From contig MFPR01000028.1 in NCBI GenBank assembly GCA_001784175.1, positions 163,955 to 227,954 on the forward strand: DNA of 64,000 nucleotides. Direction: 5' to 3'. Source of the stretch: Candidatus Lindowbacteria bacterium RIFCSPLOWO2_12_FULL_62_27. GTDB lineage: Bacteria > Lindowbacteria > 2-12-FULL-62-27. Shown one piece after another: positions 31,433-48,433 of this stretch. The notes below the pieces were generated by a model. The model did not search any database, had not been told where the DNA came from, and worked only from the letters and a program-made list of their open reading frames with translations. How positions within the stretch are numbered: position 1 is the first letter of the stretch; every line of letters starts with the position of its first letter. The translations under genes were made by a program, and so were the position numbers.

Positions 31433-31508
31433 AACCCTCTAAAGGCCTTTCTCACCTAAAACTGACCTAAAGGCGGCTCCCCGGATCGCCGAAAAAGACG
31501 GTAATGAA

Positions 31509-31587
31509 GTGGGTCATTTTATCATAGGATTTTTAGACTTGACCAATTTATCAGGAACCATCGCCCCACGTGGGTCATTTTATCATA
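31509..31587. repeat. 18-bp direct repeat, candidate activator sites
   Basis: GTGGGTCATTTTATCATA at 31509-31526 and 31570-31587. Confidence 0.85.
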
Positions 31588-31705
31588 AGCTGATTACTTT
31601 TTGCCTGTTAAGTCAGGTTATCCACATGGTTTGAGAGTAGCGAGGCAAACGTAACAACCAGACTTTCAAGCTATAGAATTAAAGGGCTTGAGCGCTGACA
31701 GGCAA

Positions 31706-31721
31706 AGGCACAGATTTTGCT
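31706..31721 (+). promoter_or_regulatory. Sigma54 (-24/-12) promoter candidate
   Basis: AGGCACAGATTTTGCT: GG-N10-GC with consensus flanks, ~70 bp before the ATG at 31790. Confidence 0.6.
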
Positions 31722-31789
31722 TGCTTTTCAGGTATCATAGCGATTTAACGAACTAATTTTGTTGATATTACGTGATGCAGGGAGAGAGG

Positions 31790-33328
31790 ATGAATCTCAA
31801 AATTGCCGCTGGATTGATCGCTATAACTGCCATTGTGCTGACTGCCACCATTGCAGGCGCGGAAGATCCTACGTTTATTGGGGCTTACGGAACGTTTTCC
31901 AACGCCAACCTTGCGATCGACGGGGACCCCGCCACATTCGCGGAAACCTCCAAAACCTACCGTAATGAGTATTTTCTGATCGTCCGATTCAACGCTCCTT
32001 CCGTCCTGCGTAACGTCAAGGTAAAGTTTGAAGGCAAGAAGCCCAAGGACTACCTCGTCGAAATGAGCATGGACGCTGTGGCTTGGAGGTCTTACGAAAT
32101 TGGCGAGAAGACGCTGTACATCCGGGTGAGAGTTCCCGGGGCCACGGACAACGATGTTTACCGGATCGCCGAGATCGAGTCCAAGTCCGACGTCGCCGGC
32201 TTGGAGCCTTTCGAGATGGTGCGCATGAATATCACCAACGTCGAAACCACGACGGCCACCTTGGAATTCACGTTCAATAAACCGGCCCGGCTGTCCATGT
32301 CATACGGGTTGGATGCCAATCCCAGTAATCACAAGAATTTCACGGAATACACCTCGTACATGACGAACTACACGCTCCGCCAGACGGACCTGATTGAGGG
32401 CGCGGACTACTATTTCCGGATCAAGGCCATCACGGCCGAGGGCGAGGTTTTCGTGCCATCTGAAACTGAGGCCTTGCCGCACTTCCGAACCCTCGGGACA
32501 CCTCCGCTTTCTTTGCTATCCGTGGGTGTCGGGTATGTCAGCCCCTTGTCGCTGTCGATCGTCGTTCGGACCAATATTCCCTCCAATTGCGTTTTCTATT
32601 TCGGCGAGCAGGTCTATTTCACCGACGTTCGGAGCAAACCCACGTTCGACACCACGCACGTCTTTGAGTTCAAGGACCTGGTGCCGAATCATCTCTATTC
32701 TTATATGGCCTTCCTGACCGACTTCCGGGGTCTGAATGTGAACATCCAAAAGCGGTTCATCACGACAACCGCCGTGAACATCGCCAGGAACAAGCGCGTG
32801 ATCGCCGGGACCTTCACACAGCAGCGCGAGTCCAATTTCCAGGGCGGCGGACTCGTGAAGGGCGACACGACCATGCAGAAATTGACGGACGGCAAGAACG
32901 ACTATTTTAACGGCATGGCGCATTCCGAAAACCTGATCAAGTACGACCAGTGGGCCGTCATCGATCTCGGCAAAGTCTATACTCTGGAAAGCCATGCGAC
33001 CGTGTGGCGCACACTCGCGTATCCTTACACCTACCAGCTCCTCGCGTCCGAGGACAACAGAACATGGAAGCAGGTCTTCACCATGAATCCTCAGCGCATG
33101 GGCGCCGGCGAAAAAATCCGGTCCGGCGGTGGCGACCCGCTCCTTGTGGCGGGGGGACCCCTGGAGCAGGCGAAGGCCCGTTACGTCAAATTGTTCATTC
33201 CGAAGGGCACCGAATTCTTCAAGCGTCACAAGACTTGGTACAACGTGGACCTCGCGGAGATCATGATCTATCCGGGCGGAGACTACGCCGAAATCAAACG
33301 GATCGTCGAGGAGGAATGGCAGCCTTGA
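31790..33328 (+). CDS. Secreted protein with discoidin (F5/8 type C)-like and FN3-like domains
   Basis: Signal peptide; LAIDGD..T and WAVIDLG..ARYVKL discoidin motifs; L..G..YYFRIKA FN3 pattern. Confidence 0.7.
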   Translation: MNLKIAAGLIAITAIVLTATIAGAEDPTFIGAYGTFSNANLAIDGDPATFAETSKTYRNEYFLIVRFNAPSVLRNVKVKFEGKKPKDYLVEMSMDAVAWRSYEIGEKTLYIRVRVPGATDNDVYRIAEIESKSDVAGLEPFEMVRMNITNVETTTATLEFTFNKPARLSMSYGLDANPSNHKNFTEYTSYMTNYTLRQTDLIEGADYYFRIKAITAEGEVFVPSETEALPHFRTLGTPPLSLLSVGVGYVSPLSLSIVVRTNIPSNCVFYFGEQVYFTDVRSKPTFDTTHVFEFKDLVPNHLYSYMAFLTDFRGLNVNIQKRFITTTAVNIARNKRVIAGTFTQQRESNFQGGGLVKGDTTMQKLTDGKNDYFNGMAHSENLIKYDQWAVIDLGKVYTLESHATVWRTLAYPYTYQLLASEDNRTWKQVFTMNPQRMGAGEKIRSGGGDPLLVAGGPLEQAKARYVKLFIPKGTEFFKRHKTWYNVDLAEIMIYPGGDYAEIKRIVEEEWQP

Positions 33329-33485
33329 ATACATTATTCGGAAATATCCTGAACATGTTTCAGTTGTTTCAGTATCCACACCACACAATCGGCTCGCCTG
33401 ACGGCAGCCTGCGCATAGATCAAGACTTGTCCGGGCGACTTTCGCACCGGATGGGCGAAACTCTAATTTAGGAGGCCAAGAAGTT

Positions 33486-35132
33486 ATGAAATCTTTCGTC
33501 AAAGGATTAATGCTTGTGGCGATCATGGCGTGGGTGATGCTCGCGCTGTCGGATATGCCGGCCATGGCATGGTTTGACGCCGACACAGCATCGCGCGTTG
33601 ACACCTCGTATGCCGCCACCGACATCGACACCATCATTCAAAGCGGTATCCCCGGTGACGGTCTGGAAGGCGCCGCCGATGAAACCAGTGCGGGACGTTT
33701 GTGGGTTACCTATGTCAAGACCAACGGACAGAAGACCAGCGCCCAGAAGACGGGTACGCAGTACGACACGTATGTGTCCGACACGGTGCTGGGTGTGCCG
33801 ACAGGCATGCTGAGCATTCAGTGGGCCTATGACAATGACAGCCGCCAGCGCCAGTTCGCCCCGCCATTGGAGGGCTTTACCGGATGGGTCGGCAACAACA
33901 CGAAGATGGAGAAACTGCCGCGTGACACGCAGTGGGTGTTGCCGGAGAGCGGCGAAACCGTGCCGCTGGATGACCAACTCTGCTTTTTGGTCATTGAAAC
34001 CGCCGACACCGGGTCGGTCAAGCTCAACATCGTCAACACCAGCAACTACGCCTGTTCGTTCGTCCTGCTGGTCAACTTCCCGGACACCGATTTCAACGTC
34101 GGCCAAGTCCCGCAGGGCGCGAAATGGCTCACGGAGGGATCGAGCCTTCGGGACCGCTTTATTGTCAGCGTCGGCCAGAATGCCGACTCCGGCAACGGTC
34201 TGGACGGCAACCGCCTGGACACCATCTCGGTGCAAGGCACCGTCGTGAAGATTGACGCGCACATCAACAGCGTGCTCCTGGCGGAAGAAGCGGAGACACA
34301 ACTCTGGTTGCGATTCGCCGCCGATACGAGCGCCGCGGCTCGAGACTCGATGAGCGTCACCGTCCAGCTCATTGGTGACACGGAATACGGCGGCCTTCAG
34401 TGGGGCACGAGTCGCCACACCCGTATCTTTCACGACAGCGGGTACTACGGCGACAACGACACCCACTACGGCGAAGGCGGCTCCTCGGATTCGGTGTCGA
34501 TCTTCGTGCTGGTGGCGACCGCGATCGTGCGGGTCAAGAAGACCGACTCGGTCTTCGCCCCCACCAGTTATGTCAACGTGACCGCAAGTAGAATTTTCGG
34601 AGACACGGCCCAGCGCGAGCGCGACACAGTGCCCGGCGCGACCATCATCTACGAGATAACCTATGATAACGATGGAAACCGCCGAGCGGACACCGTCGAC
34701 ATCATAGACTTTTTGGACAGCAACGTCGACTTTGCGATCGACACGATCAACTCCCGGTGGGATACGACGTATTTCAACACCGGCGTCGACACGCGTATGA
34801 CGCATGCGCGGCCCGCCAACGCGGACACGTATGTCTACGTTGCGTTCAGTTTGCGCGGAACGCCGTCCGTGTTCGGCGAAACGCAGGTCAACTTTAACGC
34901 GATTGGCAACGGGAAATCCACCGTTGAGACGGTCGCAGCCGTTCGGATTCGCTGGAACCCAGCGACGAACAACGATGCGGCTCTCAGGCGCGACCAGATT
35001 GACGAGCCGGCGGGCAACTCGACCGCCACGTGGGATCCGCTCGACAGGGTGGAGAGCTGCACCATTTTGACCACCGCCAACAGCGACAGCGGCGACTGCG
35101 GCCGGATTCGCTACCACGTAGTGATCCGGTAA
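33486..35132 (+). CDS. Secreted DT-rich surface protein with DUF11-like C-terminal module (paralog 1)
   Basis: RBS AGGAGG; signal peptide PAMA; VRVKKTD..PGATIIYEITYDNDG; ends RYHVVIR. Confidence 0.85.
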   Translation: MKSFVKGLMLVAIMAWVMLALSDMPAMAWFDADTASRVDTSYAATDIDTIIQSGIPGDGLEGAADETSAGRLWVTYVKTNGQKTSAQKTGTQYDTYVSDTVLGVPTGMLSIQWAYDNDSRQRQFAPPLEGFTGWVGNNTKMEKLPRDTQWVLPESGETVPLDDQLCFLVIETADTGSVKLNIVNTSNYACSFVLLVNFPDTDFNVGQVPQGAKWLTEGSSLRDRFIVSVGQNADSGNGLDGNRLDTISVQGTVVKIDAHINSVLLAEEAETQLWLRFAADTSAAARDSMSVTVQLIGDTEYGGLQWGTSRHTRIFHDSGYYGDNDTHYGEGGSSDSVSIFVLVATAIVRVKKTDSVFAPTSYVNVTASRIFGDTAQRERDTVPGATIIYEITYDNDGNRRADTVDIIDFLDSNVDFAIDTINSRWDTTYFNTGVDTRMTHARPANADTYVYVAFSLRGTPSVFGETQVNFNAIGNGKSTVETVAAVRIRWNPATNNDAALRRDQIDEPAGNSTATWDPLDRVESCTILTTANSDSGDCGRIRYHVVIR

Positions 35133-36389
35133 TCCAGCATGGAGGAGACGGTATCGACAGAGCGTAGAGCATAACCACACGCGTCGTTCGAAAGCGACAG
35201 GCCAATGCGCCCCAAAAGGGCCGGCCAGGCCTGTCACGCGGAGAATGGACGCAGAACGGAGCGGCAAAGATGGTTCCAGTTGGAGATCGATCACCCTCGG
35301 AAGGTGGTGATGGGCCGAAAGGCTGAAGGACAACCGAGGGCGTTGGTTGAAACGCCGGGAGAGAGTGTCCAAGACGGGGATGTTCCAGGCCACGAGGTCG
35401 GTAAGCGCCTCGCATGCGCGTGGAGTGTCCACCCCGTGGGCTCTGTAGACCCGGCACAACGACGGAACCTGTTTTGTGTTGCTTCGATCTGCGCAAGCAG
35501 TACATTCTTCCACGCTGACAGGGCTGTGGACGGTGCTAGACCTAATTTAACCGAGGGATCGGGGTCGGTGAGTACGATGGACCCGGTTTCCGGAGCGACG
35601 ACGGACACGCGGAACATCCGTGTCCCAGCTTCCATTACCGCCGGCCAAGCCTCCGGCCGGGCGGTAGGGTATGAGTTTCGTTCCGAACGTCTTGATCAAT
35701 GTGAGCGTTCAGCGATGGTCCAATCCCATCGATCCACGCTTCGAGATCGGGCGGCGCGGACATCCCGGAGGTATTTTCCCCGCCATCTGTTTTACCTTCG
35801 ATACCGCCTCAGACAAGCCATGACTTTTGCTCATGGCATGGGTCTGGGATCTCGTCGTGGTTTGTCCCTGGGGGCAACGGGGGCGGAAACAGAGAGCGGC
35901 CTCATGGAGAGAGGTGATGTGAGACTGCGATAGAGGATGCCGGCCGGCGAGATGCGGCCGAGAAAAACAAATACAGGTACGGCCTCCTAACTTGGATGTA
36001 TCAAGGGTTCAAATCCCGAATACATGCCGTAGGGGAGAGGAACCTAGGGAATATTGCTGGCCCTGCGACGCAGGTTGGAACGCGGGGAATATTCCCAACA
36101 TATTGAGAGCGTAAAAGCTCTCAGCGAAGTCGGTGAGGTGAGGCTGCGCGTTCGGTAGGTCTGCGCAGCAGATACCAGGCCGCAGTCGATGTGGATAGTT
36201 TACACGCAAAGTCCTTCAAGACTTTGAGCGGAGAGAGTCTGTCCCCAACGGCTGACGAGACTTAGCAGGGTAAAGGTCTTGCCCCTGATGGCGGGCAAGG
36301 TGAGCGAAGCGATTGACCGCTTTGCATAGGAAAGGTGTTGCCCAATGAGATTGACGAAGGCGAACGATAATAAGGAGGAATATAAGGGT
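35133..36389 (+). ncRNA. Candidate large structured RNA (unassigned)
   Basis: 1.25 kb without a credible ORF; dense hairpins with GNRA loops and G-U pairs in + orientation; T-loop hairpin at ~36005-36017; long-range complementarity to other spacers. Confidence 0.6.
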
Positions 36390-37802
36390 TTGTTAAAGTT
36401 ATTCCTACAGCGGAATAACTTCACGCCCCTCGTCTGCCTCCTCGCCTTCGGACTTGTTTCGCTCTTCATCCTTCCGGCGAACGCCGTTTTCTTCAACTAC
36501 AGCTCCGGCAGCACCGGCGCCTACAACACCGACTCCGGCACAGCCATTCGCAGCGAGGGCCAATCGAGCGCGATCACCCCGACGCCCGGATCGTTCGGCC
36601 TGACCTACTACCGCGCGAACGTCAAGGTTGCGGCCAACACCGACACGCGCTACGGCGTCGTCGGGCCGGCGGATTCGAGCAGTCCGCGGGTCAAGGCGAT
36701 CTACGGCGATACGCTGTCCGTCCTTTCCGGGCCTTCCACGCCGAACGACACGGTCGTCATCGCCGGCACGTCCGACTTCGACACCGTTTACCTCACGGCC
36801 GACACCGCCGTTTCCGGCGATGTCCTGACTTACGTCCTCGCCGTCACCAATTACGGCAACGCCGCCGATACCATCGGCCTCATCGTCGACAGCGCCTGGA
36901 CCCGCGGCGCCGGCACCGATACGTCCACCGGCCGGTTCAGCTACCAGTTCTTCGACCGGACCGGCGCGGCTCTGACCGGGATCCTGACGCTGGCGCATCA
37001 GGACACGGCGAAGGTCGCGCTCAAGGCGGACACGGGCGTCGAGACCGCGAGCCTGAAGATTTACACCGCCGGCGCCTCCAACGCCGACACCGTCCGGATG
37101 TTCGTCCGGGCCTTCGCGAACAACGGCAGCGGCCGGGCCATGGCGACGAGCGGCGAGGTCGCGCCGTATGTGGGGTTGAACGGCGTCAAGTACGGCGGGA
37201 GCGGCAACGCCTCGACCTTCTTTGAGGTCACCGTCAGCGGGCCGCTGGTGCGGCTGGCCAAGTTCGACACGGTATTCGCGCCGGTGTCGCTGGGCGGCGC
37301 CACCGGCGCGGCCGTGGATGACACGCAGCACTACGTGCCCGGCGCGATGCTGGTCTATACGATCTGGTTCGACAACGACGGCAACGACACCGCCGACACG
37401 ATCGTCATCGAGGACTGGATCGACACGCGGCACCTGCGGTTTGACAGCGCCGGCCTTTCGCAACTGCGCGGCGTCGCGCAGATCGCGGCCTCCGGCGCGC
37501 TTGCGGACTCATTCTACGGAAACATTTATGCCGACAGCAGGATGCCGAACATCGGCGGGGCGGTCTTCAGCATATCGATCCAGTATTCCTCCGGCGGCGA
37601 CTCCTTTGCCGGATTGACGGAGGCCACGCCGCTCGAGTCGGTCGGCCGCTTGCGGTGGACGATCGGCCGGGTCGGCACGCGGGGCGTGGTGGGCGCGAAC
37701 AACGGCGACGATGTCGAGGCCGTCGACCTGCCGCCGGTTGCGGCGGGCGCGGCGTCCGACGTGGACATGGGCTACGTGCGCTTCGCGGTGGTGATCCGAT
37801 GA
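36390..37802 (+). CDS. Secreted DT-rich DUF11-like protein (paralog 2)
   Basis: TTG after TAAGGAGG; signal peptide PANA; VRLAKFD..PGAMLVYTIWFDNDG; ends RFAVVIR. Confidence 0.85.
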   Translation: MLKLFLQRNNFTPLVCLLAFGLVSLFILPANAVFFNYSSGSTGAYNTDSGTAIRSEGQSSAITPTPGSFGLTYYRANVKVAANTDTRYGVVGPADSSSPRVKAIYGDTLSVLSGPSTPNDTVVIAGTSDFDTVYLTADTAVSGDVLTYVLAVTNYGNAADTIGLIVDSAWTRGAGTDTSTGRFSYQFFDRTGAALTGILTLAHQDTAKVALKADTGVETASLKIYTAGASNADTVRMFVRAFANNGSGRAMATSGEVAPYVGLNGVKYGGSGNASTFFEVTVSGPLVRLAKFDTVFAPVSLGGATGAAVDDTQHYVPGAMLVYTIWFDNDGNDTADTIVIEDWIDTRHLRFDSAGLSQLRGVAQIAASGALADSFYGNIYADSRMPNIGGAVFSISIQYSSGGDSFAGLTEATPLESVGRLRWTIGRVGTRGVVGANNGDDVEAVDLPPVAAGAASDVDMGYVRFAVVIR

Positions 37803-40800
37803 TGGCCCTGCTGCGAGTCCTGATGGCGTCGATTGCGGTCGCGTTCGTGTTCATGACTGCGTTCGTCGGCGCGCCCGTTTGGGCGGATGACACGGCGAGC
37901 CTGTTCGGCCCGGTGCAGAAGACGACGCCGGGCGGGATGGGCCTGACGGCGACGGTGGCCGACGGCGTCGCGGTCACGACGCCGACGCAGGCGGGCGCGT
38001 ACTACTTCAAGATCAGCACAACGCTTGATTCGACCTACGCCCTGCGCACGGCGCTCAGTTCCTACGCCGCGCGCGTGGACACGATTCCGTACATCCGGCG
38101 GGTCGACACGATCTACAGCGACACGATCGGCCTCACGAGCGAGAACGTCGCGAGCGATCCGCTCAAGGACACGGGGCGGACCATCTTCAAGGGCGACACC
38201 GCGACCTACATCCTGGCGCTGACGAACCTCGGCAACTCGACCGATTCGATCGGCCTCGTGATCGACACCGCCACCGTCGACAGCTACGCCGGCGTGAACT
38301 TCGACACGATCCCGAACTGGTCCGCGCACTACTACGACTCGCGCGGCGTCCTCATCGGCAAGGCCTCCGGCCTGGACCGCGACACGGTCTTCATCCGCCT
38401 GTCGGCCGGCAAGTCGGAGACGGTCACGGTCAGGATCTACAGCGACTCGGCCGCCTGGGACACATCGTCCATTCAGCTTACGCTCGGGGCGTTTGCGGCG
38501 AACGGCAACCGGTACAAGTTCGCGGTTCGGGCCTACCGCGGATTCACGGGCGACACGTTCGGCGGGGATGGGCACGACTCGATCACGCTGTATGTGAAAC
38601 TCAAGGCGACGACGGTCCTGCGCGTCGCCCGCGCCGACACGGCGCTGTCCGTGTCGCTCGGCAGTCACGCGTCGGACGCGAACATCACCGACACGCAGCA
38701 TTTCGTGCCGGGCGCGATCGTGGTGCGGACGATCTGGTTTGACAACGACGACAGCTCGCCGGTCGACACGCAGGTGGTGGTCGAAGACTGGATCGACACG
38801 CGGTTCCTGCAGTTCAGCAGCGCCGGCGCCGGGGCCTTGGGCGCGGGCCAGACCGCCGCGTCGGGCGCGCTCGTCGCCGGCCAGTACGGAAACATCTTCG
38901 TCGACAGCGGCATGCCGAACAACATGACCGGCGCCACTCAGATCGACGTCCGCGTTGAATATCTAACCGGCGCCGGCTGGACGCAGCTTACGCAGGCGAT
39001 TCCGGCGTCGAGCGTCGGGCGGCTGCGCTGGACGATCACGCGCGTCGCCGGGACGGGGGCGCTGGTCGGCGCGACGAACGGCGACGGCGCGCTGGCGATC
39101 GATGCGGCGCCGGCGGCCTTCGGCGCGGCCACCGATTCCGACATGGGGTACGTCCGGTACTCGGTCGTGATCCGGAGCGACAGCAGCGCGGCGAAGGGTC
39201 CGGGGCGGCCGGAGTCGGGGGTTCTCGTCGGCATCAATCCGTCGGCCGCCGGGTTCGACTCGGCCTTCATCGAGCCTGACACGAAGGGTCTGAGCGCGCG
39301 GACAACCTTTGTGTCCGCACTGCTCGCCGAGTATCTGCCGAACGTCGACATCGTGCCGGAGACGCTGTCGGCCCAGAAGATCCAGCAGACCGCCGGCGAC
39401 ACGTTCTACTTCCCGCACCGGATTGGCAGCCACGGCAACGCGCCCGACAGCTTCGCGGTGAGCGGCACGACCACGATCGACGCCATCGGCGGCCGGGTCA
39501 CGTTCCTGCTTGACATCGGCAACGCCGGGTCGTTTGACGGATTCGAGCCGAAGCTCGATACCTTCACGCTCAACGGGTCGATGACCGACTCGAAGGACGT
39601 CCTGGTCGCCGTGTTTGTGCCCGCGGGATACTCCGGCCATGACACCGCCTATCTGCGGGTGGCGTCGGTCCGGAACCGCGCGTTCTACGACACGGGCACG
39701 GACGTGTTCCGGGTGGTCGGCGCATCGCAGGTGGCGCCGGACACGGCCCAGCCGCAGACGGTGGGATCGGGCGATTCGGTCTCGTTCACGTTCTTCCTGA
39801 ACGTTCCGCCGACGGAGGACACGATCATCCTCGTTCTGGATTCGCCGCCGCTTGGCGGCCCGGCAGCCGACTCGGTCGTCATCACGATTACCGAGTCCGG
39901 TACCGTGAAAGTGTCGGACAGTTCGGTCACGGTGACGCTCGATACGACCACCGGCCAGCTCACGATCACGTTCACGGAAACGCCGCGGTCCGACACGTAC
40001 GTGTGGCAGGTGACGGTCCAGGAGACGGACAGCGGCTCGATCAAGGTCACGTTCAGTGACAGCGGCCAGTTCATCATCGACACCGTGCCGCCGTTCGTCA
40101 CGGACACGAACCCGGCCCGGCTGTTCATTGTGGACACCACGCTGGTGGGCGCCGAGACGACGATCAGCATCCGGATCATGGATACGGCCCTCGGCGACAC
40201 GACGACCGGGATCGATTCGCTCGTCATCACGATCCTTGACACGGCCGGCACGGTGGTCCGGGTCGACACGATCGACGCCTACACGCTGTATCAGTTCCCG
40301 TTCGACACGAGCGGCGCCTTTACCGTGCAGGTCGTCGCGATCGACAACGCCGGCAACACCGTGGCCCTGCCCGACTCGCTGCCGGTCGTGATCCCGGTCA
40401 AGCGCGTGATCGACCTCGTGGCCGCCGACAAGTTCAGCGCGGAGGAGAAGGACGACGTGGCGAAGGGCCTGACGGCGCAGGGGATTGTGCGGGTGAAGGA
40501 TCCGGGCGCGAACAAGGACGGGACGAGCTTCGACCGGATCGAAGTCACCATCCTCTCGGACGCCGACCTCATCGGATTCACGCTGCAGCTCGACGAGACG
40601 TCGATCAACAGCGGGATGTTCCAGGGGACGCTTGGATTCACCAACGGCGTCACCAACGCCAACGCGAAGAAGATCAAGGTCCGCGACGGCAGCGTCATCA
40701 CCGCCAAGTATGACGCGGATGGCAGCGCCGGGCCGGTCGTGTTCATCGCGGACCAGATCGCGTGGCAGGGCGAGGTCATCAAGGATCTGGACCGCGTGCG

Positions 40801-41077
40801 GACGTGGCCCAATCCGTACAACCAGTTGACCGATCCGTGCGCCTACTTCCACAACCTCCCGTCGGATCCGCACATGACGATCGAGCTCTACAACCTGAAC
40901 GGCGAGATCGTCATGACGCTGCGGGTCGGCCAGGAGATCACCCACTCGGCGAACCAGAACCTCGGATGCTGGGACGGTCGGAACAGCCGCGGCCAGATGG
41001 TGTCCAGCGGCACGTACATTTACCTCGTGCGGTCGAGCGCCGGCACGAAGGTCGGAAAGATGACGATAGTGCACTAA
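37799..41077 (+). CDS. Large secreted DT-rich protein: DUF11-like module, Ig-like repeats, C-terminal T9SS-CTD/FlgD-like domain (paralog 3)
   Basis: Signal peptide PVWA; internal PGAIVVRTIWFDND..RYSVVIR; C-terminal WPNPY..IELYNLNGE..WDGRN..G..VSSGTYIY. Confidence 0.85.
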   Translation: MMALLRVLMASIAVAFVFMTAFVGAPVWADDTASLFGPVQKTTPGGMGLTATVADGVAVTTPTQAGAYYFKISTTLDSTYALRTALSSYAARVDTIPYIRRVDTIYSDTIGLTSENVASDPLKDTGRTIFKGDTATYILALTNLGNSTDSIGLVIDTATVDSYAGVNFDTIPNWSAHYYDSRGVLIGKASGLDRDTVFIRLSAGKSETVTVRIYSDSAAWDTSSIQLTLGAFAANGNRYKFAVRAYRGFTGDTFGGDGHDSITLYVKLKATTVLRVARADTALSVSLGSHASDANITDTQHFVPGAIVVRTIWFDNDDSSPVDTQVVVEDWIDTRFLQFSSAGAGALGAGQTAASGALVAGQYGNIFVDSGMPNNMTGATQIDVRVEYLTGAGWTQLTQAIPASSVGRLRWTITRVAGTGALVGATNGDGALAIDAAPAAFGAATDSDMGYVRYSVVIRSDSSAAKGPGRPESGVLVGINPSAAGFDSAFIEPDTKGLSARTTFVSALLAEYLPNVDIVPETLSAQKIQQTAGDTFYFPHRIGSHGNAPDSFAVSGTTTIDAIGGRVTFLLDIGNAGSFDGFEPKLDTFTLNGSMTDSKDVLVAVFVPAGYSGHDTAYLRVASVRNRAFYDTGTDVFRVVGASQVAPDTAQPQTVGSGDSVSFTFFLNVPPTEDTIILVLDSPPLGGPAADSVVITITESGTVKVSDSSVTVTLDTTTGQLTITFTETPRSDTYVWQVTVQETDSGSIKVTFSDSGQFIIDTVPPFVTDTNPARLFIVDTTLVGAETTISIRIMDTALGDTTTGIDSLVITILDTAGTVVRVDTIDAYTLYQFPFDTSGAFTVQVVAIDNAGNTVALPDSLPVVIPVKRVIDLVAADKFSAEEKDDVAKGLTAQGIVRVKDPGANKDGTSFDRIEVTILSDADLIGFTLQLDETSINSGMFQGTLGFTNGVTNANAKKIKVRDGSVITAKYDADGSAGPVVFIADQIAWQGEVIKDLDRVRTWPNPYNQLTDPCAYFHNLPSDPHMTIELYNLNGEIVMTLRVGQEITHSANQNLGCWDGRNSRGQMVSSGTYIYLVRSSAGTKVGKMTIVH

Positions 41078-41130
41078 TGCCCGCTTGGAGCGGGATAGAT
41101 CGGGCCAGGAAAACGAAAGAGGTGATGTGT

Positions 41131-42636
41131 ATGAACCAGGGGAAGAAGTTGAAAGGGGCACTGAGGGAGTACGGCCTGCTGTGGACGTACTATCTCCTTG
41201 TATTAACAGTGCTGATTGTCGCGTCGCGGCCGGCGATGGGGGCGTCGACCGGCACGACGGGCGCGCCGTTTCTGAAGATTTCGGTCGGGTCCCGGCCGGC
41301 GGCGATGGGGTCGGCCTACACGGCCGTGGCGGAGGAGCCGTATGCGCTCCATTACAACCCCGCGTCGATCGGCCACATGGACCGGTGGGACCTGTCGGCC
41401 ATGCACCAGGACCAGTTCGGCGAGGTGAGCTTCGACTATTTCGGGCTTGCCGCGCCCGCGATCAAGAACCGTTCCGGCTGGGGGATGTCGTTCGTCCGCA
41501 TGGCGGTGGACGACTTCTCCCGGACGGAACTGGACGACGGCGTCAAGTTCACGAACGCGGACATGGCGCTGACGGCGACGTATGCGCACCGGATCTTCAA
41601 GCCGCTCAGCTTGGGCGTGAGCGGCAAGCTGATCAAGCAGACGCTGGCGCAGTACACGGCGAACGGCTGGGCCGTGGATTTTGGAGCGCATCTCAAAGTG
41701 AACCCGCGCCTGTCCCTGGGCGCGTCCATTATGAATATCGGCCCCGACATCACCTTCATCGCGATCGGCGATCCCCTGCCGACGACCCTCCGCGCGGGCG
41801 GCGCATTGAAGCTCCTGCCGCGGGGAAACCTCCTGGCCACGATGGATTACTGGATGCCGAAAGACGACGCGAAGGGATTCGGCATGGGCGTCGAGTATCG
41901 TCCGAGCCGGTTTCTGGCGTTTCGCGGCGGCTATCAACTTGGCACGTCGTTCCGCGGATTCAACGCGTCCTCTTTTGGATTGACCTTTGATTTTGACAAT
42001 TTCGGAATCGAATACGCGTTTGTTCCGCGCGAGAAGCTGGGCGACGTGCATCGCGCGGGTCTGAACGTTTCGTTTGGCGGGAAGAAGCCGGAAGTCATCG
42101 CGCAGCGGAAGCGGGATGTGCGCCGGAAGGAAACCGTGCGGCGCCCGCAGCGCGAGCCGGCCGTTCAGTCGGTGTCGGTGCGCGCGGAGAAAGCGCCGGC
42201 GCCGAGCGTGCCGGTGGCGGCGCCGGTGGCCGCGCCGGTTGAGCAAGAGGTACCGGCGTGGAAGAGCGTGCTGGCGGAGAGCGGAGAAGGAACGTGGGCG
42301 GTGGCGGCGCAAGAGGAAAGATCGGCGAAGGAATCAGCGCCGGCAGAGGCGCCTGTCTCACCGGCGCCGGCGCAGGAGGAAAGGCCGGCATCGGCGTCCA
42401 CGGAAGCGATCGTTCAGGAGAAACTCTCGATCGCATCAGGGCTGCTCCGGGATCAGCGGTATGAAGAGGCGGTGGCGATCATTCGCAGCGGACTGAAGGA
42501 AGATCCTCGGAACGTCCCGCTCTGGTACCTGCTGTCGGAGAGTCTGTACAAAATCGGCGAGTATGACGAGGCGATGGAAGCGGTGAACAGGGCGCTGACC
42601 CTGATTCACAGCGGACGGGGTGGCATAGCTCCATAA
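41131..42636 (+). CDS. PorV/PorQ-like outer-membrane barrel with C-terminal TPR
   Basis: APFLKISVGSRPAAMGSAYTAVAE..ALHYNPA N-terminal motif; barrel strands; Pro/Ala linker; TPR. Confidence 0.8.
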   Translation: MNQGKKLKGALREYGLLWTYYLLVLTVLIVASRPAMGASTGTTGAPFLKISVGSRPAAMGSAYTAVAEEPYALHYNPASIGHMDRWDLSAMHQDQFGEVSFDYFGLAAPAIKNRSGWGMSFVRMAVDDFSRTELDDGVKFTNADMALTATYAHRIFKPLSLGVSGKLIKQTLAQYTANGWAVDFGAHLKVNPRLSLGASIMNIGPDITFIAIGDPLPTTLRAGGALKLLPRGNLLATMDYWMPKDDAKGFGMGVEYRPSRFLAFRGGYQLGTSFRGFNASSFGLTFDFDNFGIEYAFVPREKLGDVHRAGLNVSFGGKKPEVIAQRKRDVRRKETVRRPQREPAVQSVSVRAEKAPAPSVPVAAPVAAPVEQEVPAWKSVLAESGEGTWAVAAQEERSAKESAPAEAPVSPAPAQEERPASASTEAIVQEKLSIASGLLRDQRYEEAVAIIRSGLKEDPRNVPLWYLLSESLYKIGEYDEAMEAVNRALTLIHSGRGGIAP

Positions 42637-42914
42637 GCTCAAGAGTTCAGAACTAAGTACTCGAAGCTTTCTTCGAAGAGAAGAAAGATCGCGGAAAAAA
42701 ACGTTTTCGATGAGGTGGGTCATAAAGAAGCAGGGGTGGGTAAAAAAGATGAAGTGGGACCAGTAGAAAGTGGGAAATTCGTAAGGAGGTGGTGGATCAA
42801 GGGTAAGTGAGGTTCGGTAGAGTGGGTTCCAGAAAAAGGCGGTAAGCTGATCTTCAGGAAAAAAGCAACTTCCTGAAGGCGTGGTAATTATATCCCATCT
42901 GTCAAAGATTTTCA

Positions 42915-42943
42915 TTGACAGAGGCTGTTTCCAACTGTATAAT
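42915..42943 (+). promoter_or_regulatory. Consensus sigma70 promoter
   Basis: TTGACA(42915-42920)-17 bp-TATAAT(42938-42943), a perfect match. Confidence 0.85.
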
Positions 42944-43325
42944 TTGGGAACGGGATACGATTATAGGCACATAAGGCTGAAAAGTGAATTTCAGCCCGAA
43001 AGTTAAAAAATTTTTTGGAGCGAAACGTCATGATCGAAATGAAAACAGAAGTCGAAAGTCAAACAGATACGAACGAGGTCGAAGCGGTTGTTCAGGATCG
43101 TCGCACCGTTTTGGCGCAGGCCATCGGGCGCACTACGGCCGGCCCGGCCTGCGATAAACCCGCAAGACCGAGTTCAACCACAGCGTGTGGCTATGCTCTA
43201 CGCTCAAACACGCAGGGCGACCCTCCGATGGCCCGGAGCGAGATGGTTCCAACCCATCCGGATTGCCTTATGAAGGGTAACTGAAGCAACGGCGGAAACG
43301 CCGAACAAAGAAGGAGGTCAACACG

Positions 43326-44948
43326 GTGGGGTGTTGGCGGAACAAGGTGGGGTTGAATTTCATAGTGGGGCTCGTTCTGGCCACGATGATCGTGTGCCCG
43401 GCCGAGGCCTATCCGCCGAACCAGACGGACACGTGGGCGGGCGCCACGAACATGGATTCGTCCATCATCAACGGCGTGCCCGCGGATCTGAACACATCGG
43501 CCGACAGTCTTCCCGGGCGATTGTTTGTGGGTTACACGAAAGGCAACGGCGTGCGGACGAGCGCCGCGCAGGCGGGAACGCAGAGCGACACGTATGTGTC
43601 CGACACGGTGCTGGGCGTTCCAACGGCCGAGCTGACGATCGAATGCATCTACGACGTGGACAGCCGAAGCCGGCAGATCCTGCCGGGTCTGGAGGGATTT
43701 GGCGGGTTTTCCGGCGTATCGGGCGAAACGTACCCGCGGTGGCCGCTCCCGCTCGAAAGCGGGGACACCGTTCCCGTGGTGGACAGTCTCGCGATCGTGA
43801 TGCTGGAGACCAACGACACTGCGGCCGTTCTCATCAACATATACAACACGAGCAACTATTCGTGTTCCTTCGTCATCCTCATTAATTTCCCCGACACGGA
43901 TTTTCACGTTGGCCGGCCTCCGACCGGCGGGACCTACGACAGCGAGGAGGCGGTTTTGCTGGACAAGTTCATCGTGGGCTTGGGCGTGAATCCGGAGACG
44001 GGCGTGGGTCCCAACGGCCGGGTCGACAACATCACGACGGCGAGCAACGGCGGCTCGCCCGTCGTGGCGTATCCGCACGTGTTGAGCGTTCTGATCGCCG
44101 AGGAGGCCGAGACGTCCTTTTATCTGCGAATCGCCTCGGACACCAACGCCTTCGCGCGGGATTCGCTGTGCATCACGGTCTTGTGCATCGGCGACAGCGA
44201 GTACAACAGCGTGGCGTACGGCGGCCGGCGGCACACGCGGATCTGGGACGACAGCGGGTACTTCGGCGACAACGACTCGCACTATGGCCGGGGCAGCTCG
44301 CAGGATTCGGTGTCGATCTGGGTCCTGGTGGCGACCGCGGTGGTGCGCGTGAAGAAGACCGACTCGATCTTCGCGCCCATCGGCTACCGGATGGCGGTGC
44401 AGGGCGGCGCGGGGACCGACACGAACGCGCGCGCGCGGGACACGGTGCCGGGCGCGACGATCGTGTACGAGATCACGTACGACAACGACGGCAACCGGCG
44501 CGCCGACAGCATCTTGATCATCGATTTTCTGGACAGCAACGTCGATTACAACGTGGGCCCCTTCTACAACGCCAACGGCAGCGACTCGTTCTACTCGACG
44601 AACGGCGTCGACACCCGGATGACGCATGCGCGGTGGATGGCGGACAACGTCGACACGCAGGTGATCGTGGAGTTCAGCCGGCGGAACGCCATGGACGAGT
44701 TCATTCAGGAAACGACGATGCTGGTCCAGTCGACCGACTCGATCATGGACTCGGTGGCGGGCATCCGGATCCGGTGGTCCGTGGCGACGCTGAACGGATC
44801 GCTCAAGCGGGACCAGGCGGACGACGGCTCGTATTCGGGATCGGTCCTGGACGATCTGACGACGGTGGACGGTTGTGCGATCACGACGGCGGCGTCGAGC
44901 GACAGCGGCGACTGCGGCCGGATCCGGTTTTCGGTGGTGATCCGGTAA
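43326..44948 (+). CDS. Secreted DT-rich DUF11-like protein (paralog 4)
   Basis: AAGGAGG then GTG; signal peptide PAEA; colinear homolog of 33486; ends RFSVVIR. Confidence 0.85.
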   Translation: MGCWRNKVGLNFIVGLVLATMIVCPAEAYPPNQTDTWAGATNMDSSIINGVPADLNTSADSLPGRLFVGYTKGNGVRTSAAQAGTQSDTYVSDTVLGVPTAELTIECIYDVDSRSRQILPGLEGFGGFSGVSGETYPRWPLPLESGDTVPVVDSLAIVMLETNDTAAVLINIYNTSNYSCSFVILINFPDTDFHVGRPPTGGTYDSEEAVLLDKFIVGLGVNPETGVGPNGRVDNITTASNGGSPVVAYPHVLSVLIAEEAETSFYLRIASDTNAFARDSLCITVLCIGDSEYNSVAYGGRRHTRIWDDSGYFGDNDSHYGRGSSQDSVSIWVLVATAVVRVKKTDSIFAPIGYRMAVQGGAGTDTNARARDTVPGATIVYEITYDNDGNRRADSILIIDFLDSNVDYNVGPFYNANGSDSFYSTNGVDTRMTHARWMADNVDTQVIVEFSRRNAMDEFIQETTMLVQSTDSIMDSVAGIRIRWSVATLNGSLKRDQADDGSYSGSVLDDLTTVDGCAITTAASSDSGDCGRIRFSVVIR

Positions 44949-45132
44949 TGGCCTCATCTGAAACGGTGGAAGGAATTCTGAGCGGCACAGGAGTCACCGC
45001 AACAATGGGTCTCACACCCTCTCCCTCTCTGCGAATGAAGAGAGAGGTTGAGGGTGGAGGACTTTTCGATAGATCGAAATGGGTTACGGCGATTTTCGCC
45101 GTAGCAGAAGTCTGAATCAGGGGGTTAGAGGT

Positions 45133-46776
45133 ATGAAACCGATTGTAAAAGGGTTGATTTTGGCGGCGTTTCTTGCGGGGGTTTTGGCGGCGTTCATGGC
45201 CACACCGGCCATGGCATGGTATGACGCTGACACGGCATCCCGTGTGGACACTTCGTATACCGCCACGGACATCGACACGAGCATTATCAACGGTATCCCC
45301 GGTGACGGTCTGGAAGGCACCGATGATACACAGGCCGGACGTTTGTGGGTTCGCTATGTCAAGACCAATGGGCAGTTGACCAGCGCCCAGAAGACGAGTA
45401 CGCAGTATGACACGTACACGTCCGACACGGTGCTGGGCGTGCCGACGGGCATGCTGAGCATTCTGTGGGCCTATGACAACGACAGCCGACAGCGACAGTT
45501 CGCTCCGCCTTTGGAGGGCTTTACCGGCTGGGTCGGCAACAACACGAAGATGGAGAAACTGCCGCGTGACACGCAGTGGGGGCTGCCGGAGAGCGGCGAA
45601 ACCGTGCCGTTGGATGACCAACTCTGCTTTTTGGTCATTGAAACCGCCGACACCGGGTCCGTCAAGCTCAACATTGTCAACACCAGCAACTACGCCTGTT
45701 CGTTCGTCCTGCTGGTCAACTTCCCGGACACCGATTTCAACGTAGGCCAGGTTCCGCAGGGCGCCACATGGGGCACAGAGGGATCGAGCCTTCGGGACCG
45801 GTTTCTCGTCAGCATCGGCGAGAGTGCCGACACCAGCTTGGGCCTGAACGGCGCTTCCCGGGACACCATCTCGACGGAAGGGACCGTCGTGCGGGTCCAG
45901 CCCCACATTCTCGGCGCGCTCCTGGCGGAAGAAGCGGAGACGCAACTCTGGTTGCGATTCGCCGCTGACACGACCGCCAGCGCCCGGGATTCGCTCAGCA
46001 TCACCGTCCAGCTCATTGGTGACACGGAATATGGCGGCGTTCAGTGGGGCACGCTTCGCCACACCCGGATCTGGCACGACAGCGGGTACTACGGCGACAA
46101 CGACACCCACTACGGCGAGGGCGGTTCCTCGGACTCGGTGTCGGTTTTTGTGTTGGTGGCGACCGCGATCGTGCGTGTCAAGAAGACCGACACGGTCTTC
46201 GCCCCGACGAGTTACGTTCGTGCCACCGCGGCCGCAATCTTCGGAGACACGACCTCGCGCGAGCACGACACCGTGCCGGGTGCGACGATCCTTTACGAGA
46301 TCACCTATGACAACGATGGAAACCGCCGAGCGGACACCATCGACATCATAGACTTTCTCGACAGTAACGTCGACTTCAAGATCGACACGTTCAACGACCG
46401 GTGGGATTCGTCGTATTTCAACACCGGCGTGGACACGCGTATGACGCATGCGCGGCCCCGCAACAAGGACACGCTTGTTTACGTTTCGTTCAGTTTGCGC
46501 GGCACGCCGTCTGTGTTCGGCGAAACGCAGGTCAACTTTAACGCGATTGGCAACGGGAAATCCACCGTTGAGACGATCGCGGCCGTTCGGATTCGATGGA
46601 GCCCATCGGCGAACAACGACGGGTCCCTCAGGCGCGACCAGGTTGACGAGCCGGGGGGCAACTCGGCCGCCACGTGGGATCCGCTCGACAGGGTGGAGAG
46701 CTGCACCATTTTGACCAGCGCCAACAGCGACAGCGGCGACTGCGGCCGGATCCGGTTCGCGGTGGTGATTCGGTAA
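45133..46776 (+). CDS. Secreted DT-rich DUF11-like protein (paralog 5, near-duplicate of 33486)
   Basis: Signal peptide PAMA; long DNA blocks nearly identical to 33486-35132; ends RFAVVIR. Confidence 0.88.
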   Translation: MKPIVKGLILAAFLAGVLAAFMATPAMAWYDADTASRVDTSYTATDIDTSIINGIPGDGLEGTDDTQAGRLWVRYVKTNGQLTSAQKTSTQYDTYTSDTVLGVPTGMLSILWAYDNDSRQRQFAPPLEGFTGWVGNNTKMEKLPRDTQWGLPESGETVPLDDQLCFLVIETADTGSVKLNIVNTSNYACSFVLLVNFPDTDFNVGQVPQGATWGTEGSSLRDRFLVSIGESADTSLGLNGASRDTISTEGTVVRVQPHILGALLAEEAETQLWLRFAADTTASARDSLSITVQLIGDTEYGGVQWGTLRHTRIWHDSGYYGDNDTHYGEGGSSDSVSVFVLVATAIVRVKKTDTVFAPTSYVRATAAAIFGDTTSREHDTVPGATILYEITYDNDGNRRADTIDIIDFLDSNVDFKIDTFNDRWDSSYFNTGVDTRMTHARPRNKDTLVYVSFSLRGTPSVFGETQVNFNAIGNGKSTVETIAAVRIRWSPSANNDGSLRRDQVDEPGGNSAATWDPLDRVESCTILTSANSDSGDCGRIRFAVVIR

Positions 46777-46969
46777 GAGGCAGCGTGAAGAAAGGGGTGG
46801 TGTGATCGGGATGCTTGGGATCTTACACTCATGCGTCACGTGATCCCATGCAGCGGGCTTTAACCCTCTGAGGCAGGCGGCGGTCCGACCCCGCCGCGCA
46901 ACACGCCGCCGAGGCCGCGGGTTTGATCCCCGCCGTCAAACGGACAGAGGGAGGCTCATGCCCGTCCGA

Positions 46970-48433
46970 CTACATCTTGGGGAGATCGCCTCTGGCTCGG
47001 AGGAATTCGTAGAAGAGCCGGACGCCGATGCCCGTGGCGCCGGGGGGCCGGCCATCGCGGCCCCGGGTGTCCCATGCTGTGGCGGCGATATCGAGGTGGG
47101 CCCATGGGACGTGTTCGTCGGCCAGGAATTTTTTGAGAAACATTCCGCCGATGATGGTCCCGGCCAGCCGTCCCTCGGGGATGTTCTGGACATCGGCCAC
47201 GGAGCTTTTGATGAGCCGGTCGTATCCGTCGTGGAGGGGCAGTCTCCAGAGTCGTTCGCCGCAGGTTTCGCCGGCCTCCTGGAGGGACTGCGCGAGCGCG
47301 TCATTGTTGGAGAGGATGGCGGCGTAGACATCCCCGAGCGCGATGGAACACGCGCCCGTGAGGGTGGCCATGTCGATGACGGCTTCGGGCCGGAAGCGGC
47401 CGGCGTAGAAAAGCGCGTCGGCGAGGATGAGGCGGCCCTCGGCGTCGGTGTTTTTGACCTCGATGGTCTTGCCGGAGAGGCTTCGGACGACGTCTCCCGG
47501 CCGGGTGGCGGCGCCTCCGGGCAGATTTTCCGTGAGGGGCGCAAGGCCCACGAGCGGGACGCGCGGTTGGAGCGTGCGTGCGGCGGAAAAGATTCCGATG
47601 ACCGCCGCCGCTCCGGACTTGTCGTGTTTCATCTCCTCCATCTTGTCGGAGGGCTTGATGGAGATGCCGCCGGAATCGAAGGTGACGCCTTTGCCGACGA
47701 GGACGATCGGACGGCCCGCGGTCGGAGATTTTGGATTTTGGGTTTTGGATTTTGGATTGTATTGAAAAACCAGAAAGGCCGGGGGCTCGTGGCTGCCGCG
47801 GGCGACGGCCAGGAAGGCGCCCATGCCGAGCCGTTCGCAGGCGCGGCGGTCGAGGACTTGGACGCGGACGGCGCCGCCGGAAAGTTTGCGGGCGCGCCGG
47901 GCGAGTTCGGCCGGGGAACCCATGTTGCCCGGGAGATTGGAAAGGTCGCGCGCGAGATCGACGCCGTCGGCGACGGCTTCGATGTAATGGAGGAGGGACC
48001 CGATCCGTCCGCGTTCGGCGGCGGACCGGCACACGATGGCAAGGGATTCCAGTGGTTTGTCTTTGGGCGCTTCGGAACGAAGAGAAAACCGGTATTGCGA
48101 CAATCGGACGCTTTCGGCGAAGATTCCCGCGGCTTCTTCCGCATCCGGCAGGGGCCATGCGTCCGTTTCAAAGGTCACGTGCCGGACGCCGCGGCCGGCG
48201 AGTTCCTGCGCGGCTTCCGCAGAGGCTTTTCTCAGGCCATCGCGCTCGAATTTGTCTTTCGGGCCAAGTCCGACCGCGAGCCGGTGCGCGTCATCGCCGG
48301 GCAGGAAGAGCCGCTCGCCGGATTTTCCGTGAAAATCGGCGGCCGGCGTCGGTTTCTGACCTTCAAAGAAAAATCGGATGCTGCATCCTTTGCGAGGCGG
48401 CCTTCGCCCGCCAACTTCCGCGAACAATCTCAC
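46970..48433 (-). CDS. pepA: Leucyl aminopeptidase (M17)
   Basis: VGKGVTFDSGG, MKHDKSG, NTDAEGRL, ATLTG, WAHLDIA; GTG start overlaps the upstream stop. Confidence 0.93.
   Translation of the reverse strand: MRLFAEVGGRRPPRKGCSIRFFFEGQKPTPAADFHGKSGERLFLPGDDAHRLAVGLGPKDKFERDGLRKASAEAAQELAGRGVRHVTFETDAWPLPDAEEAAGIFAESVRLSQYRFSLRSEAPKDKPLESLAIVCRSAAERGRIGSLLHYIEAVADGVDLARDLSNLPGNMGSPAELARRARKLSGGAVRVQVLDRRACERLGMGAFLAVARGSHEPPAFLVFQYNPKSKTQNPKSPTAGRPIVLVGKGVTFDSGGISIKPSDKMEEMKHDKSGAAAVIGIFSAARTLQPRVPLVGLAPLTENLPGGAATRPGDVVRSLSGKTIEVKNTDAEGRLILADALFYAGRFRPEAVIDMATLTGACSIALGDVYAAILSNNDALAQSLQEAGETCGERLWRLPLHDGYDRLIKSSVADVQNIPEGRLAGTIIGGMFLKKFLADEHVPWAHLDIAATAWDTRGRDGRPPGATGIGVRLFYEFLRARGDLPKM
47727..47758. 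repeat. Heptamer tandem repeat (GATTTTG)n inside pepA
   Basis: About 4.5 copies; encodes NPKSKTQNPKS. Confidence 0.85.

Follow-up and report, generated by a model that had tools for sequence, protein, structure and literature searches.

A few bacterial mRNAs are known in which the two ends pair with each other, and such pairing, in the account given in PMC7821165, is not conserved even between close species. In the hbs mRNA of Bacillus subtilis (Braun et al. 2017), according to the same account, pairing of the 5' untranslated region (UTR) with the 3' UTR protects against RNase Y, and the 3' UTR is not conserved among close relatives; in icaR of Staphylococcus aureus the 3' region pairs with the 5' UTR of its own mRNA to form an RNase III substrate, and a UCCCC motif covers the ribosome-binding site (RBS) and blocks translation (PMC7821165). 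RNase III stems flank 16S and 23S rRNA in the description of PMC6582327, the same enzyme is reported to cleave long-range intramolecular structures within B. subtilis mRNAs (PMC11780869), and selective RNA processing and stabilisation is described for operon mRNAs (PMC10667835). Here we describe a surface-protein operon in a 64-kb stretch of contig MFPR01000028.1 from Candidatus Lindowbacteria bacterium RIFCSPLOWO2_12_FULL_62_27 (the window, in which all coordinates are positions), where the leader of a DUF11-like secreted-protein gene, paralog 1 (P1), is predicted to pair with a site in the spacer behind the gene, S1, as a three-way junction that recurs in four genomes.

The junction between the P1 leader and spacer S1

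The comparison covered four Candidatus Lindowbacteria genomes, all of the phylum in the collection: that of the window and three of the metagenome-assembled type (G001, G002 and G003). The locus is present in all four, and the three relatives each encode an orthologue of P1 (41-44% identity) and of the second gene, P2 (52-57%). Every leader-S1 run of at least 7 bp was mapped to alignment columns, with Watson-Crick and G.U pairs allowed, as throughout the duplex tests. Three of the 128 runs recur at homologous columns in all four genomes, and two of them are helices A and B of the junction. The third (33389-95/35218-24) was left uncounted because it does not vary and a covarying local hairpin competes with it. 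Controls with a reversed leader or a reversed S1 each gave 0 four-genome stems, and 300 permutations of the leader columns, in which conservation and relatedness were retained, averaged 0.09 such stems and never exceeded 2, so that 0 of 300 reached 3.

The two arms of the leader are predicted to pair with adjacent segments of S1, and the resulting helices (10-15 pairs in A and 9-11 in B, from the pair tables of the four genomes) are divided by hairpin H2, which projects from the leader as the third arm of the junction (Table 1). Helix A, interrupted in the window by a single A.A mismatch, spans 10-15 pairs in the three relatives, with outer extensions that are different in each genome and, at one pair, a compensatory series running from A-U through G.U to G-C. 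Helix B reads GGGCGAAACTC/GAGTTTCGTTC in the window and GGGCGAAAAT/ATTTTCGCCC, GGCGAAACC/GGTTTCGCC and GCGATTACC/GGTAATCGC in the relatives, some positions having changed on both sides. The outer pairs of H2 vary among the genomes with pairing maintained, and the stem of hairpin H1, upstream of helix A, likewise differs in sequence and pairs in each genome. Helix B ends 20-32 nt upstream of the ATG in the four genomes, leaving the Shine-Dalgarno (SD) sequence free, and the loop closed by the junction, 2209-2529 nt in length, holds the whole P1 open reading frame (ORF) together with the first part of S1; P1 is in this way bordered by complementary flanks, as in rRNA processing stems. The pair tables were taken from cofolds, and MAFFT sets the arms one column off register in two of the four sequences and splits the G003 arm. 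A hammerhead-type core, looked for in the junction by eye, was rejected, as the junction strands measure 0-6 nt, are not conserved and are absent in G003.

Cofolding returned the same architecture of helix A, hairpin and helix B in all four genomes, at free-energy differences (ddG) of -22.7 to -25.2 kcal/mol, compared with shuffle means of -4.0 to -7.9 and a lowest shuffled value of -19.6 kcal/mol. When the leader module was slid over all 38-nt windows, the S1 site came out at the top of 15,967 windows in the 64 kb (-25.2, with the next unrelated site at -19.8, a mean of -4.2 and a standard deviation of 2.5), and it also ranks first as leader partner in each of the three relatives' loci. Sequence comparison thus shows helices A and B with H2 as the same predicted three-way junction in four of four genomes, with compensatory changes. 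Because this junction has been kept by compensatory change across genera whose P1 proteins are ~41-44% identical, we argue that it has a selected function.

A scan of the genome collection with the S1 motif matched just the three known relatives, and a metagenome scan with the P2 protein alignment returned two loci and no new sequence: one, whose identity figures equal those of G002, was taken for that organism, and the other matched the window at 100% identity. Among the sequencing runs listed as containing the stretch there were DNA runs and none of RNA. Contigs from four of the DNA runs showed the helices without variants and added no usable sequence that was new.

Spacer S1 and the layout of the locus

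The original prediction had treated the large spacer as a structured RNA region, and in this it was right: S1 is conserved, structured and non-coding. Its nucleotide islands are colinear and 78-92% identical among the genomes. A 242-aa ORF within it has no tblastn match in the relatives, and the tblastx matches are short and fall in all frames, by which S1 is without a conserved reading frame. Twenty stems in S1 are present in all four genomes, compared with 0-6 (mean 2.45) in 20 column permutations. A search against Rfam (4227 families) gave nothing in S0 or S1 at E <=1 (positions 31000-49000 of the window), nor at E <=0.1 in the three relatives' loci, the sole matches being look-alike hairpins elsewhere that miRNA models picked up; no tRNA or transfer-messenger RNA was called by ARAGORN. 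By blastn the spacers, including S1, are unique in the genome.

Three hairpins mark the conserved islands. Ha, right after the stop codon, has no T-run behind it and was not called as a terminator. The stem of Hb covaries (TTACCGCC/GGCGGTAG, TCTGCCGG/TCGGCAGA and GGGCCGC/GCGGCCC), as do the stem extensions of Hc (CTCGATGG/CCATCGGG and TCTGATGG/CCATCAGG), and these two hairpins flank the S1 arms of helices B and A. The 3' domain of S1, which forms a conserved structured leader for P2, contains hairpins at 36103-24, 36143-69, 36278-95 and 36304-25. RNAalifold assigned 46 pairs to this domain, 8 with two-sided changes, 13 with one-sided changes and 25 invariant; 15 of the 46 include at least one sequence that does not pair.

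Three further observations were made in and around S1. The tip of a hairpin at 35993-36028, GGG-TTCAAAT-CCC, resembles a tRNA T-arm and has counterparts in G001 (GG-TTCGATT-CC) and G003, where the outer stems differ and still pair; G002 is without it. The SD region of P2 (36374-36381) could pair in four of four genomes with a pyrimidine run at 35504-35511, which adjoins the invariant GACAGGRCTGTGGACGG; this pairing shows no covariation, and stems of the kind number 0-6 in controls. The P1 frame runs on past its stop codon through another 12-13 open codons (35133-35171), up to an invariant ...CGTAGAGCNTAA in all four genomes, with a 3-nt length difference among the genomes as read from the alignment and an otherwise invariant C-terminal VVIR; this open stretch could reflect readthrough or chance, and was judged not distinguishable from chance. 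Readings as a group II intron, a diversity-generating retroelement or a tRNA-like gene were rejected, there being no Rfam or ARAGORN match and no reverse-transcriptase family among the 14 ORFs scanned. Group II introns hold ORFs in loops, and the device proposed below for leader and S1 may be likened to them in that respect, but it is no intron.

Table 1. Coordinates of genes, spacers and predicted RNA elements (window positions)
Feature	Position	Strand	Remarks
F5/8 type C + fn3 domain gene	31772-33328	+	
Spacer S0 (P1 leader)	33329-33485	+	
Motif AATCGGC, then hairpin H1 (33391-33409)	33387-33409	+	motif near-invariant in 4/4 leaders
Helix A, 5' arm, in P1 leader	33412-33426	+	14 pairs with 35689-35703
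Hairpin H2 between leader arms, third arm of junction	33429-33452	+	in all 4 cofolds
Helix B, 5' arm	33453-33463	+	11 pairs with 35673-35683
Shine-Dalgarno AGGAGG of P1, outside both helices	33470-33475	+	sequence reading
P1 ORF, DUF11-like secreted protein, predicted looped-out part	33486-35132	+	548 aa
Spacer S1, conserved structured non-coding region	35133-36389	+	1.26 kb here, ~1.3-1.6 kb in relatives
Hairpin Ha, conserved island 1, right after stop codon	35196-35235	+	GACAGGCC...GGCCTGTC in 4/4 genomes
Hairpin Hb, invariant GCCTCCGG in or near loop	35635-35667	+	CCTCC at 35650-35654
Helix B, 3' arm	35673-35683	+	begins 540-808 nt past P1 stop, 4 genomes
Helix A, 3' arm	35689-35703	+	0-6 nt from helix B 3' arm
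Hairpin Hc (GATGG-TCCNATC-CCATC)	35713-35731	+	core near-invariant
S1 3' domain, conserved structured P2 leader	36094-36389	+	~300 nt; SD at 36372-78
P2, DUF11/DUF7619-like	36390-37802	+	TTG start at 36390
1140-aa protein	37655-41077	+	CHU_C-like C-terminus weak, under Pfam cut-off
PorV-like + TPR protein	40762-42636	+	
Spacer S2	42637-43325	+	
Predicted sigma-70-type promoter TTGACA-17-TATAAT, AT-rich part of S2	42915-42943	+	12/12 matches
P3	43326-44948	+	53-55% identity to P1
Spacer S3	44949-45132	+	
Strong local CT-rich/GA-rich hairpin in S3, between P3 and P4	45007-45064	+	-33.7 kcal/mol, z -4.27
P4	45133-46776	+	84% identity to P1
Spacer S4	46777-46957	+	
531-aa ORF	46958-48553		no family, 18% identity to P1
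Further DUF11-like gene	48430-49635	-	

The locus lies in a region of high G+C content with priA as its upstream neighbour. Gene order is kept among the genomes as F5/8 type C gene, P1, a gap of ~1.3-1.6 kb, P2, large protein and PorV/TPR gene, with the last of these out of view in G001, where the contig ends within the large protein. The relatives' contigs stop 564-839 nt past the PorV/TPR gene or earlier, leaving S2-S4 without a counterpart. The 46958-48553 ORF had been counted among the paralogs, which its low identity to P1 and its lack of a family do not support, and because long ORFs overlap it on the opposite strand, the 46.8-48.4 kb segment is without a secure gene. The sequence ...SDSGDCGRIRFxVVIR, or a near form of it, closes all four paralogs (P1-P4, with P2 as the second) as well as their orthologues; this shared C-terminus may be a sorting or assembly signal, the genes standing beside one for a PorV-like + TPR outer-membrane protein. 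Structure prediction for P1 (AlphaFold) gave a mean predicted local distance difference test score (pLDDT) of 31.4, too low for a further structure search. In AT-rich DNA upstream of the operon's first gene, two exact direct copies of GTGGGTCATTTTATCATA lie 61 nt apart (31509-31526 and 31570-31587) and may be regulator sites; two matches occurred in 0 of 100 shuffles. A weaker promoter-like site is found at 31651-31679.

Proposed role and competing readings

We judge it rather probable that helices A and B are real and that the junction ties the P1 leader to a site 2.2 kb downstream, with closing-stem action as its likely role. The leader arms would pair with the adjacent S1 segments to give a nearly fully paired three-way junction closing a 2.2-kb loop, and this junction would act on the RNA in the manner of the stems flanking rRNA or of the pairings between 5' and 3' UTRs in icaR and hbs. 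It could serve as a two-helix RNase III substrate, by which the first cistron would be cut from the polycistronic RNA with its ends paired and protected, or it could shield the 5' leader from RNase Y. With either option the mRNA for the presumed major subunit would gain a lifetime of its own, and hence a dose of its own, relative to the downstream genes. The genome, at 94% completeness, has genes for RNase III (PF14622, 101 bits, contig C36) and RNase Y (634 bits), and none for RNase E/G or RNase J was found in it. The assignment of the closing stem to RNase III processing or RNase Y protection, drawn by analogy, is quite possible, though we would stop short of calling it probable. More tentatively still, leader and S1 may make up one discontinuous structured RNA of a new family confined to Candidatus Lindowbacteria, with the 1.65-kb ORF looped out, that sets the processing, lifetime or translation of the subunits of a cell-surface structure.

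Several points weigh against the closing stem. The contrasts come from four genomes of one family and few of them are independent. In G001 an ORF-internal site (8221) nearly ties with the S1 site as leader partner (-23.0 vs -23.2). Whole-spacer duplex energies do not separate helices A and B from chance. The four-genome stems within S1 are similarly frequent on the plus strand, where G.U is allowed (20 of 1522), and in a minus-strand reading, where A.C takes its place (16 of 1234). That P1 is the major subunit is assumed, and the co-transcription of leader and S1 site, like any cleavage, is putative. The helices are 9-15 bp each, and the ~20-bp helix of an RNase III substrate would presuppose coaxial stacking across the junction.

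An icaR-type control of translation, in which the docked S1 would bring the CCUCC of Hb (35650-54) onto the SD GGAGG (33471-75), shut off the first gene and possibly invite RNase III decay, is unlikely. The GCCTCCGG motif is invariant in all four genomes, lies ~20 nt 5' of the helix B 3' arm and would continue the helix in antiparallel direction towards the SD, and the UCCCC anti-RBS motif of icaR, as described in PMC7821165, provides a precedent. Covariation, however, cannot support a pairing of two invariant motifs, any SD is matched by any CCUCC, the cofolds do not predict the contact, and the Hb stem of G003 takes in part of the motif.

It is distinctly unlikely that the contact forms in trans, with S1 from ~35.6 kb acting as a separate RNA, either the 5' UTR of a P2 operon or a processed fragment, that would bind the P1 leader and couple expression. 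The pairing evidence is independent of whether both arms share one molecule, and the long conserved 3' domain of S1 is clearly a leader of P2; yet a scan for sigma-70-type promoters and intrinsic terminators found no plus-strand promoter-like or terminator-like site in S0 or S1, leaving neither a start within S1 nor an end after P1 among the site types scanned.

A reading at the DNA level would place inverted bipartite protein-binding or recombination sites on either side of P1, so that a regulator might loop the DNA or a recombinase invert it, with parallel change reflecting protein specificity or gene conversion. Paired binding sites would also be expected to change in parallel, and the strand asymmetry within S1 is weak, so that the strand evidence rests on gene direction and on the few G.U pairs in the helices. 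We nevertheless consider this reading quite improbable. The halves stand 24-30 nt apart in the leader and 0-6 nt apart in S1, and the leader interval holds a covarying hairpin; the non-Watson-Crick positions of helices A and B, 4 of 92 predicted pairs in the four genomes, are all G(leader).U(S1) on the coding strand. Because of this unequal spacing, the covarying hairpin between the arms and the four G.U pairs, plus-strand RNA is favoured over DNA for both helices. A minus-strand reading of leader against S1 gave one four-genome stem instead of three. A scan of 14 neighbouring ORFs turned up no recombinase family, and the contigs of four DNA runs showed no strand-changing joint, the latter being a weak negative, as contigs drop rare forms.

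Coincidence of two independently conserved motifs, with helices A and B included, is very improbable. The helices are short and the four genomes are related, but none of the conservation-keeping column permutations reached the observed count, two-sided changes occur at several positions, and the S1 site is top-ranked in all four loci.

The weakest reading, hardly credible on the evidence below, is the original prediction in full, in which all five spacers (S0-S4) nest into a single RNA core of one 13.5-kb mRNA with every paralog ORF looped out. Its 14 duplexes do exist in the sequence, 12 of them as written, ungapped and with 0-1 mismatch, and two (46781-92/35505-17 and 46825-36/35416-28, with arms of 12 and 13 nt) once a 1-nt bulge is admitted. 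As a set, they do not exceed chance in run counts, nested chains or energies, whether against shuffles or against random stretches of the genome. The leader (33329-33485) makes 85 ungapped runs of at least 8 bp with S1+S2+S3, compared with 79.5 ± 13.9 in 200 dinucleotide shuffles, 32.5% of which reach 85, and 5 runs of at least 11 bp compared with 4.1 ± 2.4. Its best nested chain, 99 bp in 12 stems and thus already beyond the 8 stems proposed, compares with 97.2 ± 6.3, and 40.5% of shuffles reach 99. Chains between the 3' part of S1 and S2 (70 vs 66.8 ± 7.2) and between S4 and S1 (100 vs 98.7 ± 7.2, scored as nested where colinear order had been described) also fall at the shuffled level. When 200 stretches of 2041 nt drawn at random from this genome served as partner, the leader made 66 ± 12.7 runs of 8 bp or more (9% reach 85) and nested chains of 93.4 ± 7.8 (26% reach 99). 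RNAduplex energies for seven spacer pairs lie at z -0.91 to +0.53 relative to shuffles; whole-spacer RNAduplex and 40-nt-window duplex energies are without power here, in that the real leader/S1 pair is also at the shuffle level. Shuffled controls with equally many nested duplexes had been named beforehand as refuting, and equally many were found. The appeal to an excess of G-U as a sign of RNA was circular, because G-U had been allowed when the pairs were picked. Taken together, the 14 duplexes amount to the short complementarities present as background between any leader of 150 nt and 2 kb of sequence. Such lists from a single genome are uninformative, and comparison alone split two real helices from 12 chance-like pairs.

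Four of the 14 duplexes could be compared between genomes, the ten with arms in S2, S3 or S4 falling outside the relatives' contigs, so that the pairs of these spacers are not directly disproved. Helices A (33412-26/35689-703) and B (33453-63/35673-83) were kept in the orthologous loci; 33373-80/36190-97 and 33394-401/35747-54 were not among the six runs supported in at least three genomes. A second nested set had been drawn between S1 and S2, and its S1 arms lie in a window-specific insertion (36199-36240) or in conserved, covarying local hairpins (36278-83 x 36290-95 and 36304-11 x 36318-25). What stands of the looped-out ORFs is that of P1, which would be enclosed by the first nested set's two innermost duplexes. 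The leader modules of P3 and P4 found no outstanding partner between 40000 and 56000 (best -16.5 and -16.3, within the background tail), and the homology of P1 and P4 is limited to the ORF (33482-35132 vs 45129-46776, 86.5%), the P4 flanks not being homologous to those of P1. A small GGCG-N4-5-CGCC-type hairpin occurs 35-50 nt before the start codon in the leaders of P1, P3 and P4 (33434-33447, 43291-43302 and 45088-45100), and because each carries it, the paralog leaders look mutually complementary in duplex searches. A 43242-43258 segment of S2, GATGGTTCCAACCCATC, which is Hc-like with two mismatches and lies ~70 nt before P3, was rejected as a second copy of the module, since 23 of 100 shuffles give at least two matches.

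The perfect predicted promoter in S2 argues against an obligatory 13.5-kb mRNA, and the region bearing it has 9 promoter-like sites, compared with 4.1 ± 1.9 in shuffles. This promoter, and the lack of plus-strand promoter-like sites in S0 and S1 in the same scan, suggest two putative transcription units, one from ~31.7 to 42.6 kb and a second from 42.9 kb. Because the later leaders are partnerless and this promoter intervenes, we read one ORF as looped, not five. Behind the S2 promoter follows an 84-aa ORF (43030-43284) with no Pfam match, which contains three of the arms in the predicted duplexes. G003 has a hairpin longer than that in S3, though of comparable composition, immediately upstream of its P1 leader (L013 10082-10177), matched by Rfam miRNA models by shape only; the two are candidate intercistronic stabilisers.

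Comparison with described systems

Selective RNA processing and stabilisation acts in the pap fimbrial and cellulosome operons. Structures in spacers give segments of an operon for a surface structure different lifetimes in such cases, and the strong hairpin in S3 would fit this pattern. As far as the accounts cited at the outset describe them, the known cases involve local stem-loops, whereas the proposed partners here lie 2.2 kb apart. The stems of rRNA precursors, as outlined in the same accounts, offer a closer likeness in that complementary flanks loop out a long RNA and an RNase III gene is present; here, in contrast, the looped RNA is protein-coding, the stem is split by the junction into helices of 9-15 bp, and it is known from sequence.

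The icaR mRNA resembles the P1 locus in the pairing of a downstream region with the 5' UTR of the same gene, present here in all four genomes where a single RNA would carry both, and in belonging to the surface/biofilm genes. It differs, on the description available, in that its RBS is covered, whereas here the SD is left uncovered, helices A and B ending 20-32 nt short of the start, with the CCUCC loop as a lead only. With hbs, the likeness lies in a short pairing (helices of 9-15 pairs here) upstream of the RBS with a region past the same ORF, and in the presence of a gene for RNase Y, the nuclease by which mRNA decay is initiated in the hbs host. Unlike hbs as portrayed there, the P1 locus has two helices and a hairpin in a three-way junction, closing a loop of 2.2-2.5 kb; the partner lies 540-808 nt past the stop in an operon spacer without a terminator-like site, and not near the terminator in a monocistronic 3' UTR; and the pairing is conserved across genera with ~41-44% protein identity. 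A contact that spans 2.2-2.5 kb as a three-way junction has thus been kept across four genera.

Large structured bacterial non-coding RNAs without an assigned function, such as OLE, GOLLD and ROOL, are the nearest likeness of S1 itself. S1 shares with them a length of several hundred to more than 1000 nt, conserved islands, covarying hairpins and a narrow taxonomic range, and differs in matching none of the Rfam families searched, in lying inside an operon and in its predicted pairing with an upstream mRNA leader. The junction sits in a kilobase-long structured spacer that belongs to no known RNA family, in a candidate phylum without a cultured member. If the pairing is borne out, the locus would provide both a new large RNA element to study and a clear case from nature of an operon transcript organised by long-range RNA structure.

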